Shown here: positions 28,101-31,100 of the stretch, one piece after another
Position numbering within the stretch: position 1 is the first letter of the stretch
Layout of the letters: each line of letters opens with the position of its first letter
DNA from: Vulcanimicrobiota bacterium
GTDB lineage: Bacteria > Vulcanimicrobiota > Vulcanimicrobiia > Vulcanimicrobiales > Vulcanimicrobiaceae
Reading direction: 5' to 3'
DNA length: 64,000 bases
Assembly: GCA_963723515.1 (NCBI GenBank)
Contig: CAVRQT010000003.1
Coordinates: 320,001-384,000, forward strand
Program-made: the position numbers

Positions 28101-31100
28101 GCAGGCTTAAGGTGAAGGAGGCGAAGCGCTTCAGCGGCAGAGTGCGCAGCTGCAACCGCTGTCGCAATCCTTTCATTTCTTGCAGACTCCACGCATCAAG
28201 CTTATGCCAAGCTTGTGCCATACGTATGGCATTTTGAGGATAACCACCGTGCGCCGCGTGAATCACTCAAAGAGAAAAGCGCTTGCAAAGGCATCGGGTT
28301 GGACACGTCTGTGCTTGGTGATAGGTTGCCTAAGCGAGTGCGCGGTGAACCGCGTGTGCAAAACGCCTCATTTGTCGCGATTGCTGTTGGACGCGAGATC
28401 AACATCGCAGACTTCTATGTCAACCTTCAGCGAGTTTGTCGGCACTGAGAACGTTAGCTATGTTGAGGCCTTGACCACGTGACTTCACCGCGAGACGGTT
28501 GCTGTCAGATCGTTGAGACCGAGCCGTCCATCGCCGGGCGCGCGCCTCAAGAGGATGAGAAACTGTCTTTTTTAGGAGTGACGGGCAAATAGTCGAGCAG
28601 CGATAGACAAATCATCGCGACCTAAACCGCTTGGGATGACCGGGACTCGAACCCGGACGCCCTCTCGGGCGACAGATTTTCACACCACTATAACTTTCGT
28701 TACCGCTCGCGTCTCAGCAAGAGCGTTTGTGGTCCGGACTGTGCCTTGACCCTAAGTTGCCCCGTAGGCCGCGCCCGTCCAGTCTCTACACCTTCGCGAT
28801 CGTAGCATCGCGCTTGGCTCGGCGTTGTCACGGCCCTTGCCAGAGAGTCCGCCGAATTTGAGCGCATCCCAAGATGCGTTTCCATCACCTTGGCTCAACG
28901 TTGCAAGTCTGTTGTGTCTACCGATTCCACCATCATCCCATGCATCGGACTGTTCGAGCGTTGCTTCCGCGACGCCCGTACACCTCGGCAGGGCTATCGC
29001 CGCGCCATCCAAAAGCGACGCCAGTTCCCCGGCAGGCTAACGTGTCAGCCGGGATTCGTCTTGTTTTAGGAGGCCACTCGGCGCGTGAAGATCGTCGTGA
29101 CCGTCAAGGTCGTGCCGGATCCAAACAGCATCAAACGGATCGATCCGAATACCAAGCGGCTCGTTCGCAGCGGCGCCGACAATGTCATCAACCCCTACGA
29201 TGAATATGCGCTCGAAGCGGCACTGCAGCTGAAAGAGAAGCTTGGCCCTGAGACGACCGTCAGCATCGTCAGCATGGTGCCGGAAAACGCGAAGGAAGTG
29301 GTCCGCAAAGCGCTTGCGATGGGGGCCGACGATGCGGTGATGTTGAGCGACTCTGCGTTCGAAGCCAGCGATGTTTGGGATACCGCGCGGGTTCTGTCCG
29401 AAGCGATTCGCAACCATGGGTTTGACCTCGTCATCTGCGGCGGACTGTCTGATGATGGAAGCACCGGCGCCGTCCCAGGCGCGCTTGCGCGAACATCTGC
29501 GGCGTTCCGGGACTCACAAACGCGCGTCACATCGACGTTGCCGATGGCAAGCTAACGATTCAGCGCGAAACGGATAGCGGTTATCAGGTCGTCTCAGGTC
29601 CGTTGCCTGCGATGGTCAGCGTGACGATGGGTGTTGGGGAGCCTCGTTACCCATCGCTTAAGGGCATCATGGGCGCGAAGAAAAAAAACATCGCGATGAC
29701 CTCGCATTCCGACCTGAGCGTCGATGACGCGCTCGGTGCAAATGGCGCAAAGACCGAATTGCTCGAGGTTGCCGCCCCTGCTGCACGCGAGAAAGGCCAA
29801 ATCGTCAATGCGAGTGACGGCGCCGAGGGTGCAAAGGCCATCTTCGACTTCTTGCAGCAACGCAAGCTGATCTAAATGCAACACGTCGTCATCTTCGCCG
29901 AACATCAAGGCGGGCACACGCGCAAAGTCACCTACGAACTTGCAACAGAAGCGCGACGACTTGCCGACGCGGTCGGCGGAAAAGCGCACGCGATTGTGCT
30001 GGGGAACGGCGCGAGCTCGTTAGCGGAGCAGCTCAAGCGCTATCCGCTTGATGTCATCCACGTAAGCGAAGATGCGGATGTCGATAAATTTCTTATCGAT
30101 CCGGTCGTCGATTACGTTGAGGCGCTCGCGCGTGATTTGGGGCCGTCGATCGTGCTCGTGCCCAATACGATGTATGGACGCGACATTGCCGGACGTTTAT
30201 CGGCGCGGCTTGGTTGCGGGCTCACCTCCGACGTCACGGACATCAAAATCGAGGGCGGTAAAGTCGACTGCATTTCGCCGAAGTTGGGGGGCGCCGCGAT
30301 CACCACGTGCACCTTCAAAAACAGCGACTACGCCGTTATGACGGCGCGGCCGAATGCGTTTGCGGTCGAAGCGGGCGGCGGGTCTGCGCAGGTGCAGCAA
30401 TTGGAGAAGCCGGCCGGCAGGTCGTATCGGATGGTGATCGAGCAAGATGTCGAGGAGGGCTCCGGCGAGCTTGGCCTGGAGGAAGCGCCTGTCGTGGTAG
30501 CGGGCGGGCGAGGCCTCGGCGGTCCTGAACCGTTCCAAACGCTCTTAAAGCCTCTTGCCGATGCCTTGGGCGGTGCTGTTGGCGCCTCACGAGCGGCAGC
30601 AGACGCCGGCTGGGTGCCCTACAGCCTGCAGATCGGCCAGACCGGCAAGACCGTCAGCCCGCCCCTCTACATCGCGATCGGGATTTCCGGGGCCATCCAG
30701 CACAAGGTCGGCATGCGAACGGCGGGAACGATCGTCGCGATCAATAAAGATGGCGGGGTCCCGATAGGAGAGTTCGCCGATCTGCTCGTCGTGGGCGATC
30801 TCTTTGCGATTGTTCCGGAGCTCACCAAGCTCATCCAGGGAGCGAAAGCAGCCCACGCGTGACAAACGCCCCGGCTCGGGCGTTATATTTCTCGAAAGCC
30901 ACTATAGTTGAATGCCACTATAAAGGAAGTTATTAGTTTGAAGCGCTCGTTTGTACTTGGTCTCTTTTTTATTGCCGTTTGCGCCGCAATCGCGCTGATC
31001 GGCGTTCGGGCAGATGCCCGGTCGAAGGCGCCTGCATCCCCGCTGCATCCCCGACGCCGGCCGCCGCGCCGACGGCAACCCCGGAGCCGCCCGACAAAGC

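Follow-up and report, generated by a model that had tools for sequence, protein, structure and literature searches.

An ORF-less group I intron in the tRNA-Leu(UAA) gene of a Vulcanimicrobiota bacterium and its probable kinship with introns of Proteobacteria, phages and cyanobacteria

We conclude with high confidence that the window analysed here, a 64-kb stretch of DNA (64,000 nucleotides) from a Vulcanimicrobiota soil bacterium, carries a working tRNA-Leu(UAA) gene that is split between U34 and A35 by an ORF-less intron of the IC3 type, and that this intron belongs to a lineage common to Proteobacteria, phages and cyanobacteria. With introns allowed, ARAGORN reports tRNA-Leu(taa), 86 nt, on the minus strand at C3 c[348631,348940], corresponding to window 28631-28940, and a 224-nt intron whose junction (gactt / intron / aaaat) places it at 28681-28904. 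The mature tRNA-Leu(UAA) probably spans 28632-28939, end points that follow from acceptor-stem pairing, as ARAGORN includes one surplus T-A pair. The parts of the gene are as follows.

28631-28940, minus strand: precursor tRNA-Leu(UAA), 310 nt, without encoded CCA (ARAGORN -i)
28905-28940, minus strand: 5' exon, ending in ...GACUU, with U34 as the last exon base (U-1) (ARAGORN)
28681-28904, minus strand: ORF-less group I intron, 224 nt, IC3 type, with the last base G at 28681 as omega-G (ARAGORN, covariation and the covariance model R1 described below)
28631-28680, minus strand: 3' exon, beginning AAAAUCUGU, with A35 first (ARAGORN; comparison with the same-genus genome G067)

GACTT closes the 5' exon in all 24 ARAGORN-called loci of the family, and the 3' exon matches the corresponding half of the intron-less G067 gene at 96% identity. 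The acceptor, D, anticodon, variable and T stems form across the intron, with 96-100% of cells paired among 53 homologues. An earlier note on this DNA had described a tRNA-Leu(UAA) gene split at U34/A35 by a 224-nt group I intron, which ARAGORN with introns and the covariation of P1-P9 bear out; it had also called the gene invisible to standard scans and the only one of its kind, and both descriptions agree with our results. Default ARAGORN finds no tRNA in window 27000-31000, and its 45 tRNAs in the 4-contig assembly include the Leu anticodons gag, cag, tag and caa and none with taa. The split gene is the sole tRNA-Leu(UAA) found in this assembly, which is 88% complete, so that a second such gene could lie in the missing part.

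Rfam likewise misses the intron: at E<=10 there is no RF00028 match over window 28000-29500, the three RF00028 matches of the whole genome all lie elsewhere, and the intron does not reach the gathering score of 50 bits. RF00028 gives 75-91 bits on cyanobacterial trnL introns, 28-35 bits on proteobacterial homologues and a sub-threshold but significant 32.1 bits (E 8e-5) on a Vulcanimicrobiota relative; its seed is without bacterial sequences (Williams 2020, bioRxiv 10.1101/2020.01.27.920355). A covariance model built from nine cyanobacterial trnL introns only (R1) matches the window intron over the full model length with 92 bits and an E value of 2.8e-24, which is, by this score, far beyond chance. 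R1 has two matches in the 64-kb window and likewise finds only two introns in the whole genome. Homology to the cyanobacterial trnL intron at the identical site, as the earlier note had proposed, is upheld by this score together with the covariation.

A second split gene in the window is that of tRNA-fMet, whose intron codes for an I-Ssp6803I-like endonuclease (E 7e-59 against PDB 2OST); R1 scores 85.7 bits on this intron. Further ARAGORN intron calls for Thr-cgt and Trp-cca (C1) and for Leu-cag (C3) were set aside, as these anticodons exist uninterrupted and R1 finds no third intron. A nadA-like Rfam match at 29256-29348 (17.2 bits, E 1.1) was taken as chance. A search of sequencing runs gave no RNA run and a single soil DNA run, which shares 0.09 of the sequence words.

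Across the 53 homologues, the canonical P1-P9 fold including the P3/P7 pseudoknot is paired in 95.4% of 4417 cells, and 53 of its 84 pairs show compensatory changes. When the partners were slid by 1-3 columns as a control, 35-41% were paired, and none of 500 shuffles reached the observed values. Covariation of P3, P4 and P7 extends between phyla and favours the canonical pairing, overruling a non-canonical P3/P7 pairing that RNAalifold gave for the family only. The elements, in the order of the transcript except for the 3' strand of P3, which is listed beside its partner, are these.

28894-28907, minus strand: P1, formed by exon CUU (28905-28907) and the internal guide GAG (28894-28896) (covariation)
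28869-28893, minus strand: P2 hairpin, GAAA tetraloop at 28879-28882 (7 of 10 pairs compensatory)
28860-28866, minus strand: P3 5' strand UGCGCUC, partner 28770-28776 (covariation)
28770-28776, minus strand: P3 3' strand GGGCGCG (covariation)
28819-28855, minus strand: P4-P5-P5a domain, P4 being 28850-28855 with 28819-28824 (covariation)
28790-28818, minus strand: P6/P6a variable hairpin, the site of the HNH ORF in the phage relative (P6a, 6 of 6 pairs compensatory)
28781-28786, minus strand: P7 5' strand G(A)GACU, partner AGUCC at 28736-28740, pseudoknotted with P3 (covariation)
28749-28769, minus strand: P8 hairpin (family fold, covariation)
28736-28747, minus strand: J8/7 AAGGCAC (28741-28747) and P7 3' strand (28736-28740) (aligns to the cyanobacterial model)
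28684-28733, minus strand: P9 with P9a, P9b and a second GAAA tetraloop (P9b, 4 of 4 pairs compensatory)

In P1, the C-G and U-A pairs are present in 53/53 sequences and U.G at the 5' splice site in 51/53; the splice-site pair is C-G in the two tRNA-Leu(CAA) hosts. P2 pairs in only 80.6% of cells because the cyanobacterial register differs. P3 is paired in 98.9% of cells, with 4/7 pairs compensatory across phyla, while P4 (3/6 compensatory) and P7 (2/5) are paired in 100%; P5 and P5a covary as well. J8/7 and the 3' strand of P7, the presumed guanosine-binding helix, are unchanged in 24 family sequences. U-1 and the terminal G are kept in 24/24 ARAGORN-called family loci, and the terminal G in 30/30 outside loci among the matches listed. 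The ORF listing contains no plausible homing-enzyme ORF inside the 224-nt intron, and its frames there are overlapping chance frames only.

The fold of the intron is thus established by comparison; splicing we infer. The precursor would fold into P1-P9, an external guanosine would attack 3' of U-1, held in the U.G wobble of P1, the terminal intron G would then occupy the same G site, and ligation of the exons would yield the 86-nt tRNA reading UUA. The failure of RF00028 and the partial or shortened intron copies in the relatives G007 and G025 could also be taken as signs of a dead gene, in which a decaying intron or insert stays in the transcript and UUA is decoded in some other way. However, no exon or core helix is broken, all of them are conserved, compensatory changes maintain the helices, and the assembly yielded no second gene for this anticodon, although UUA is regularly used (1317 codons in 486 long ORFs, or 5.1 per 1000 codons). 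We therefore regard a dead gene as very unlikely.

The locus was surveyed in 101 family genomes including G000, with the unpublished G008 (full length) and G019, G041 and G051 (exons only) counted. A full-length, one-piece locus is present in 38 of the 101 (69-79% identity) and part of the intron in 7 more, so that intron sequence occurs in 45/101; another 45 have exons only and 11 gave no match. The exon halves abut exactly at query 36/261 in 35 of the exon-only genomes, the other 10 having a single exon. These counts match the earlier statement that the intron is present in some Vulcanimicrobiaceae and absent from others. Within the phylum, 69 of 201 genomes contain intron sequence, all from two families (62 in f1, 7 in f3). 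Intron-bearing and intron-less states coexist within genera g1, g25, g33, g41 and g71, and the same-genus G067 offers a clean empty site, without the intron and without the HNH cassette described below, in matching flanks. The best reading of so scattered an occurrence is a mobile element that has been gained and lost repeatedly, with phages as its probable carriers.

Two homologues lie on contigs of MAGs labelled Opitutus and Acidoferrum. They have Vulcanimicrobiota-type exons and nest inside the Vulcanimicrobiota clade, which fits mis-binning, a suspicion already voiced about copies labelled as other phyla. Could the window locus likewise be an assembly or binning artefact, derived from another organism? 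The chance is negligible in our view, given that the split gene lies inside a 1.08-Mb contig, that its flanks are syntenic with the same-genus genome, and that its exons are of a lineage-specific type common to 45/101 family genomes.

Outside the phylum, the same-site intron resides in native-looking exons of Cupriavidus nantongensis HB4B5 (chromosome 2), Variovorax sp. ZT4R33 and Pseudofulvimonas gallinarii DSM 21944, as well as in at least seven proteobacterial MAGs. The proteobacterial hosts include Xanthomonadales MAGs, and the tRNA-Leu(CAA) form occurs in Steroidobacteraceae. A tRNA-Leu(UAA) split at the same site is also encoded by the 595-kb uncultured phage LR756511.1, an unannotated INPHARED record. 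Bacteria of at least three phyla thus carry the same intron in tRNA genes of their own, as does a phage, and Vulcanimicrobiota is not the "second bacterial home" of which the earlier note spoke. The pattern scan of genome contigs returned at least 120 loci, with ~2000 chance matches expected, and since about 85 of these loci are not introns the list of host phyla is a sample rather than a census. Two pattern scans of IMG/VR for further phage copies gave three matches, none of them an intron by ARAGORN or R1, and no match, respectively.

The window intron is 68% identical to the phage intron, 56-62% to proteobacterial and 53-57% to cyanobacterial introns, the lowest values thus falling on the group after which it had been labelled "cyanobacterial/plastid-type", a label that we do not retain. 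By sequence, the nearest relative found is the phage trnL(UAA) intron, which encodes a putative HNH homing endonuclease and is the sister of the Vulcanimicrobiota clade (98/93, from one phage record and 217 columns). Outward from Vulcanimicrobiota, the phage intron is followed by Proteobacteria, with cyanobacteria furthest; the grouping of Vulcanimicrobiota with Proteobacteria has 87/72, the deep branching being weak. Among introns of other tRNAs, a cyanobacterial one from tRNA-Arg(CCU) joins the cyanobacterial Leu introns (89/67), and one from a phage tRNA-Lys(UUU) is placed within the Leu group (90/88).

How do these data bear on a direct link with cyanobacteria, by transfer or shared ancestry, that would make Vulcanimicrobiota a second home of a cyanobacterial or plastid-type intron? 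Gene and site are the same, R1 gives its 92 bits, the P7 sequence is as in cyanobacteria, a clade of Vulcanimicrobiota and cyanobacteria is not rejected (p-AU 0.41), and the other "cyanobacterial" tRNA intron, that of tRNA-fMet with its 2OST-like endonuclease, is present in the window as well. On the other hand, the same intron occurs in proteobacterial isolates, MAGs and a phage, the cyanobacterial introns are the least similar, and the best trees place first the phage and then Proteobacteria beside Vulcanimicrobiota. Moreover, R1 scores nearly as high on the fMet intron, and hence detects the IC3 family rather than a Leu-specific link. Overall, a direct cyanobacterial link seems improbable.

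That trnL introns exist outside cyanobacteria is already known; a trnL intron in a gamma-proteobacterium was reportedly described by Vepritskiy et al. (2002, J Bacteriol). Williams (2020, bioRxiv 10.1101/2020.01.27.920355) tabulated tRNA group I introns by phylum and counted 72 Leu introns at the same loop position in Proteobacteria. It is the only paper that our literature search found to join IC3 introns, tRNA, proteobacteria and cyanobacteria, and the search returned no paper linking group I introns, tRNA and Eremiobacterota. What Vulcanimicrobiota adds is a further host lineage, new for an already known type of element, and a connection to a phage; the phylum table of Williams 2020 may already include the phylum.

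Could this ORF-less intron still be moving? A free-standing HNH gene lies downstream of the tRNA, between two copies of the last 22 tRNA bases.

27680-28192, minus strand: HNH endonuclease gene, free-standing, 170 aa, about 440 nt downstream of the tRNA (Pfam HNH, HNH_3)
28631-28652, minus strand: 22-nt direct repeat, copy 1, the tRNA's own 3' end (sequence comparison)
27646-27667, minus strand: 22-nt direct repeat, copy 2, followed downstream by sequence matching that beside the intron-less G067 gene

The protein scores 26.2 bits with PF01844 and 27.5 bits with PF13392, both above the cut-offs, and is 42% identical (E 3e-36) to the ORF in the trnL(UAA) intron of phage LR756511.1. We consider it possible, albeit doubtful, that the intron spreads by collaborative homing, in which the HNH enzyme would cut a tRNA-Leu(UAA) gene without intron and HNH gene, and repair would copy the cassette together with the nearby intron, keeping it mobile in the family. 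The flanking repeats, the empty site in G067 and the homologous enzyme within the phage intron are consistent with such a process. So is the position of the three closest family homologues (49-57% identity), each at most 200 nt from a tRNA-Leu gene with intron (G097, G086 and G063); an HNH neighbour accompanies 4/45 intron-bearing genes vs 0/36 genes with abutting exons. Yet four carriers in 45 are few, side and orientation of the gene differ in G086, the repeat is not seen in G097, G086 and G063, and the introns of the four HNH-adjoined genes are not mutually closest relatives. HNH homologues also adjoin intron-less tRNA genes, namely tRNA-Leu(UAA) in phage LR745208.1, tRNA-Gly in a Variovorax phage, and tRNA-Thr and tRNA-Gln in the window's own genome, so that the enzyme may simply target the ends of tRNA genes.

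Tentatively, and with a good deal of reserve, we propose that phages ferry HNH-armed tRNA-Leu(UAA) introns across phyla, and that the Vulcanimicrobiaceae locus is a landed copy whose enzyme moved out of the intron, now resides in a 1-kb 3' cassette and still drives the spread of cassette and intron together. Textbooks present the trnL(UAA) intron as "ancient", and it is in wide use as a marker. If the phage-ferry proposal is true, this "ancient cyanobacterial" intron would represent a single branch of a mobile family that phages carry across phyla, and not a cyanobacterial heirloom. Polymorphism within genera and the clean empty site make a tractable system for studying how an ORF-less ribozyme keeps moving. 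In practical terms, because standard tRNA finders and Rfam miss the gene, genomes of this phylum and of G+C-rich Proteobacteria will be reported without tRNA-Leu(UAA) or tRNA-fMet, which distorts tRNA counts for MAG quality and inferences on codon reading; a G+C-balanced IC3 model would fix such missed split tRNA genes.

Among known systems, the trnL(UAA) introns of cyanobacteria share with the window intron the host gene, the insertion point CUU/AAAA, the P1-P9 layout with GAAA loops on P2 and P9, the U.G at the 5' splice site, the terminal G and the P7 sequence. They differ by compensatory changes in P3, P4 and P9; the window intron is G+C-rich, and the two fall into separate clades (97/94 vs 98/98). 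The structural reference for IC3 is the Azoarcus pre-tRNA-Ile(CAU) ribozyme, similar in being a small anticodon-loop intron of ~200 nt that bears two tetraloops; it has another host tRNA and another loop position. For this ribozyme we cite PMC13168695. The introns of proteobacterial tRNA-Leu(UAA)/(CAA) share the site, identical P4 and P9 stems and a similar size (223-243 nt) with the window intron, but carry compensatory P3 and P7 changes, form a distinct clade (99/96) and sit in exons of proteobacterial type with encoded CCA, which the window gene lacks.

Collaborative homing, the mobilisation of an ORF-less intron by a free-standing endonuclease, has been described for cyanophage psbA. An ORF-less intron, an adjoining endonuclease gene and a relative without both (G067) are likewise seen here; unlike in the cyanophage case, the intron sits in a tRNA gene of a bacterial chromosome and the link is loose (4/45 carriers). 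Finally, the trnL(UAA) intron of phage LR756511.1 differs in its length of 700 nt, in the 189-aa HNH ORF in P6 and in exons of another type, while it shares gene, site and a P3 sequence that, this phage apart, is peculiar to Vulcanimicrobiota, its ribozyme reaching up to 75% identity to family members.

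Positions 28940 to 28631 of the window, read on the minus strand, hold the two halves of a tRNA-Leu with 224 bases between them. When introns are allowed, ARAGORN calls a tRNA-Leu(taa) of 86 nt with the junction gactt/intron/aaaat, which places the intron between U34 and A35, in the anticodon loop CUU/AAAA. Default ARAGORN makes no call at this locus, and Leu(UAA) is not among the 45 tRNAs that it returns from the whole 2.11-Mb, four-contig assembly. An Rfam search of positions 28000-29500 at E ≤ 10 gave no group I match, and across the whole genome the Rfam group I intron model RF00028 found three matches elsewhere and none at this locus. 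These searches bear out the earlier note, which had described a gene split at U34/A35 to which standard scans are blind. The codon UUA occurs 1317 times across 486 long ORFs, so the cell needs a tRNA-Leu(UAA). The note had also called this gene the only one of its kind; it is the sole one found among the tRNAs of the assembly, which is just 88% complete, and "only" has to be read in that sense. Among the 45 tRNAs of the whole genome tRNA-Val(UAC) was not called either, and its gene may sit in the unassembled 12%, because R1, a covariance model trained on nine cyanobacterial trnL introns and nothing else, finds no third IC3 intron.

The fold was examined on an alignment of 53 precursors: 30 from Vulcanimicrobiota (window included), two from contigs labelled Opitutus and Acidoferrum, and 21 from other groups (10 proteobacterial tRNA-Leu(UAA), 2 proteobacterial tRNA-Leu(CAA) and 9 cyanobacterial). 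The canonical structure, which comprises P1-P9, with P7 forming a pseudoknot, and the stems of the tRNA, was drawn by hand on the window sequence. Standard pairs occupy 95.4% of its 4417 cells, and 53 of the 84 pairs show changes on both sides. Shifting the 3' partners by 1-3 columns lowered pairing to just 35-41%, and none of 500 shuffles attained the observed pairing and covariation values. Helices that are invariant inside the family Vulcanimicrobiaceae covary between phyla, in 4 of 7 pairs of P3, 3 of 6 of P4 and 2 of 5 of P7. RNAalifold had given a non-canonical P3/P7 pairing for the family alone, which the between-phyla covariation of the canonical pairing overrules. The 5' splice site is closed by U.G in 51 of 53 sequences and by C-G in both CAA hosts, and the terminal base is G in all introns examined.

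Applied to the 64-kb window, R1 matches the trnL intron at 28734-28907 (92 bits, E 2.8e-24) and only one other site, a second intron at 6526-6698 (85.7 bits); the same two introns are its sole matches in the whole genome. The homology with the cyanobacterial trnL intron claimed previously is therefore upheld. The silence of RF00028, raised earlier as a concern, was reproduced at E ≤ 10, yet the cyanobacteria-only model scores the intron well. RF00028 gives 75-91 bits to the cyanobacterial homologues, 32.1 to one Vulcanimicrobiota relative and 28-35 to proteobacterial ones, with no match to the remainder, and its seed holds no bacterial sequence (Williams 2020, bioRxiv 10.1101/2020.01.27.920355). 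Because Vulcanimicrobiota and proteobacterial homologues are likewise scored low or not at all, the Rfam miss is a property of the model and no evidence against group I membership. Judged by its sequence and fold, the trnL insertion is a group I intron, and we infer that it would be self-splicing.

Among 101 genomes of the family, including that of the window and the unpublished G008, G019, G041 and G051, the whole locus was recovered in one piece in 38 (69-79% identity) and the intron in part in 7 more. Exon-only matches occur in 45, with the halves abutting exactly in 35 and a single exon in 10, and 11 genomes gave no match at all. The intron is thus present in some members and absent from others, as had been proposed. 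Both states coexist within the genera g1, g25, g33, g41 and g71; G067 of g1 is intron-less, and g25 is divided four to four. Across 201 genomes of the phylum, one of them the unpublished G234, the intron sequence was found in 69, of which 62 belong to this family and 7 to one other family of the same class, and it was not found in the 19 other families sampled. The publicly named relatives Ca. Elarobacter and Ca. Tumulicola belong to Vulcanimicrobiaceae, Vulcanimicrobiota. At G007:C69:17800-21500 an intron-less tRNA-Leu(UAA) has, about 80 nt downstream, a remnant consisting of the intron 3' half and 3' exon, with a 24-nt copy of the tRNA 3' end about 700 nt beyond; an intron-bearing gene appears to have been replaced there by one without the intron. 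At G025:C205:131-341 the 5' exon and first 49 intron bases are followed by the 3' exon just 73 nt away, a layout suggestive of an intron cut down to about 120 nt by internal deletion.

The window's intron shares 56-62% identity with proteobacterial introns and 53-57% with cyanobacterial ones. In a tree whose outgroups were a cyanobacterial tRNA-Arg(CCU) intron and the fMet intron of the window, Vulcanimicrobiota (98/98), Proteobacteria (99/96) and cyanobacteria (97/94) each lie on one side of a branch. Vulcanimicrobiota and Proteobacteria are joined at 87/72, and the alternative grouping of Vulcanimicrobiota with cyanobacteria is not rejected (p-AU 0.41). In the 595-kb uncultured phage LR756511.1, a 700-nt intron interrupts tRNA-Leu(UAA) at the same site. 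Its ribozyme shares 68% identity with that of the window and as much as 75% with those of family members, and has in common with them an otherwise Vulcanimicrobiota-specific P3 sequence. The phage intron is placed as sister to the Vulcanimicrobiota clade at 98/93 (one phage record, 217 columns), followed at 90/88 by the tRNA-Lys(UUU) intron of Gordonia phage Daredevil. No additional phage copy of the trnL intron came out of two exact-pattern scans of IMG/VR. In the Daredevil tRNA-Lys(UUU) (NC_048021.1, ~41820-42131) a 238-nt IC3 intron (R1 82.3 bits) interrupts the gene after U34, and the record has no annotated feature there.

Beside the tRNA lies a cassette with the following features:
27680-28192, minus strand: 170-aa ORF with HNH domains, ~440 nt downstream of tRNA-Leu(UAA)
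28631-28652 and 27646-27667: identical copies of the final 22 bases of the tRNA, one each side of the HNH ORF

In G067, of the same genus, the exons abut and the entire cassette is missing. The sequence past the second 22-base copy matches the flank downstream of the G067 gene, and on the upstream side identity is 79% over 2.2 kb, so that G067 provides clean empty sites for both intron and cassette. A 189-aa ORF in P6 of the LR756511.1 intron is 42% identical to the window's HNH protein (E 3e-36). The three closest family homologues (49-57% identity; G097, G086, G063) lie within 200 nt of an intron-bearing tRNA-Leu, and none adjoins any of 36 abutting-exon tRNA-Leu genes. Such a pattern might be expected of collaborative homing, in which a free-standing HNH enzyme would cut intron-less tRNA-Leu(UAA) and repair would copy in cassette and ORF-less intron jointly. 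However, the HNH neighbour is present in just 4 of 45 intron carriers, in G086 it occupies the opposite side and strand, and the 22-base repeat is seen in the window only. Homologues also adjoin intron-less tRNA-Leu(UAA) in phage LR745208.1 (56% identity), intron-less tRNA-Gly in a Variovorax phage and, elsewhere in the window's own genome, intron-less tRNA-Thr(UGU) and tRNA-Gln. Given so loose a linkage, we consider collaborative homing unlikely; it is safer to say that members of this HNH family insert at the ends of tRNA genes and are at times carried within the intron. The two paralogues in the genome are an intact 180-aa ORF ending 2 nt before tRNA-Thr(UGU) (C3:503891-504431, minus strand) and a short or degraded copy ~55 nt before tRNA-Gln(CUG) (C3:1059449-1059616, plus strand); flanking repeats of ≥14 nt were not found at either.

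Further group I introns and matches of the genome are:
6435-7163, minus strand: split tRNA-fMet(CAU), CU/CAUAA; RF00028 46.9 bits, R1 85.7 bits
6476-7129, minus strand: tRNA-fMet group I intron, 654 nt
6579-7109, minus strand: PD-(D/E)XK endonuclease ORF in the fMet intron; PF11645 E 3e-51, PDB 2OST E 7e-59
C3:735721-735993, minus strand, outside the window: 23S rRNA group I intron, within an LSU rRNA match; RF00028 67.5 bits
C3:734873-735167, minus strand, outside the window: second, weaker group I match, ~600 nt off; 24.2 bits

We take 2OST to be I-Ssp6803I of the Synechocystis tRNA-fMet intron. A more sensitive R1-type search of 151 genomes of the phylum gave matches in four further families, all to other introns, in tRNA-Tyr(GUA), tRNA-fMet, tRNA-Thr(CGU) and tRNA-Asn(GUU). 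Other families of the phylum have ORF-less fMet introns (L165, L168, L169). Low-G+C members of other families carry the IC3-type introns in tRNA-Tyr(GUA) (227 nt; L164, G112), tRNA-Thr(CGU) (286 nt; L166, G109) and tRNA-Asn(GUU) (256 nt; L167, G104), and R1 gives the first of these 112.9 bits, above its score for the window's intron. Overall, the phylum Vulcanimicrobiota is well supplied with group I introns in its tRNA genes.

A pattern scan in which each species was represented by a single genome matched at least 120 stretches, most non-tRNA matches being chance by estimate. Among the 120 listed, ARAGORN found 28 tRNA-Leu(UAA) split at the same site and 2 split tRNA-Leu(CAA). Those 28 comprise 9 cyanobacterial, 7 labelled Vulcanimicrobiota/Eremiobacteraeota, 2 labelled Opitutus or Acidoferrum, and 10 proteobacterial loci, three of these from isolates (Cupriavidus nantongensis HB4B5 chromosome 2, Variovorax sp. 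ZT4R33 and Pseudofulvimonas gallinarii DSM 21944). Exon sequences are lineage-specific, so the gene around each intron looks native. The contigs labelled Opitutus and Acidoferrum have Vulcanimicrobiota exons and introns nested within that clade, which fits the mis-binning suspected in the earlier note. In the tree, beta- and gammaproteobacterial introns are intermixed, Cupriavidus grouping with Pseudofulvimonas (L050/L047) and Variovorax with Pseudoxanthomonas (L075/L102). Their 5' exons are almost the same, with differences at one or two D-loop positions only, a hint that the locus may have been exchanged as a unit between orders.

The split tRNA-Leu(UAA) is a real and well-supported observation, to which we add the homologues in proteobacterial isolates, the phage sister with its HNH ORF, the cassette of the free-standing HNH gene together with its 22-nt duplication and its empty site, and the second tRNA intron in the window. 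The proteobacterial loci contradict the idea that Vulcanimicrobiota are the intron's second bacterial home. A 2002 paper in J Bacteriol reportedly described a trnL(UAA) intron in a gamma-proteobacterium. A map of 5292 tRNA group I introns by phylum includes 72 proteobacterial Leu introns at the same position (Williams 2020, bioRxiv 10.1101/2020.01.27.920355), and passages in general reviews still call the trnL intron cyanobacterial and plastid. What is new is the host lineage; the intron family is a known one, and the element is neither a new kind of intron nor that family's second bacterial home.
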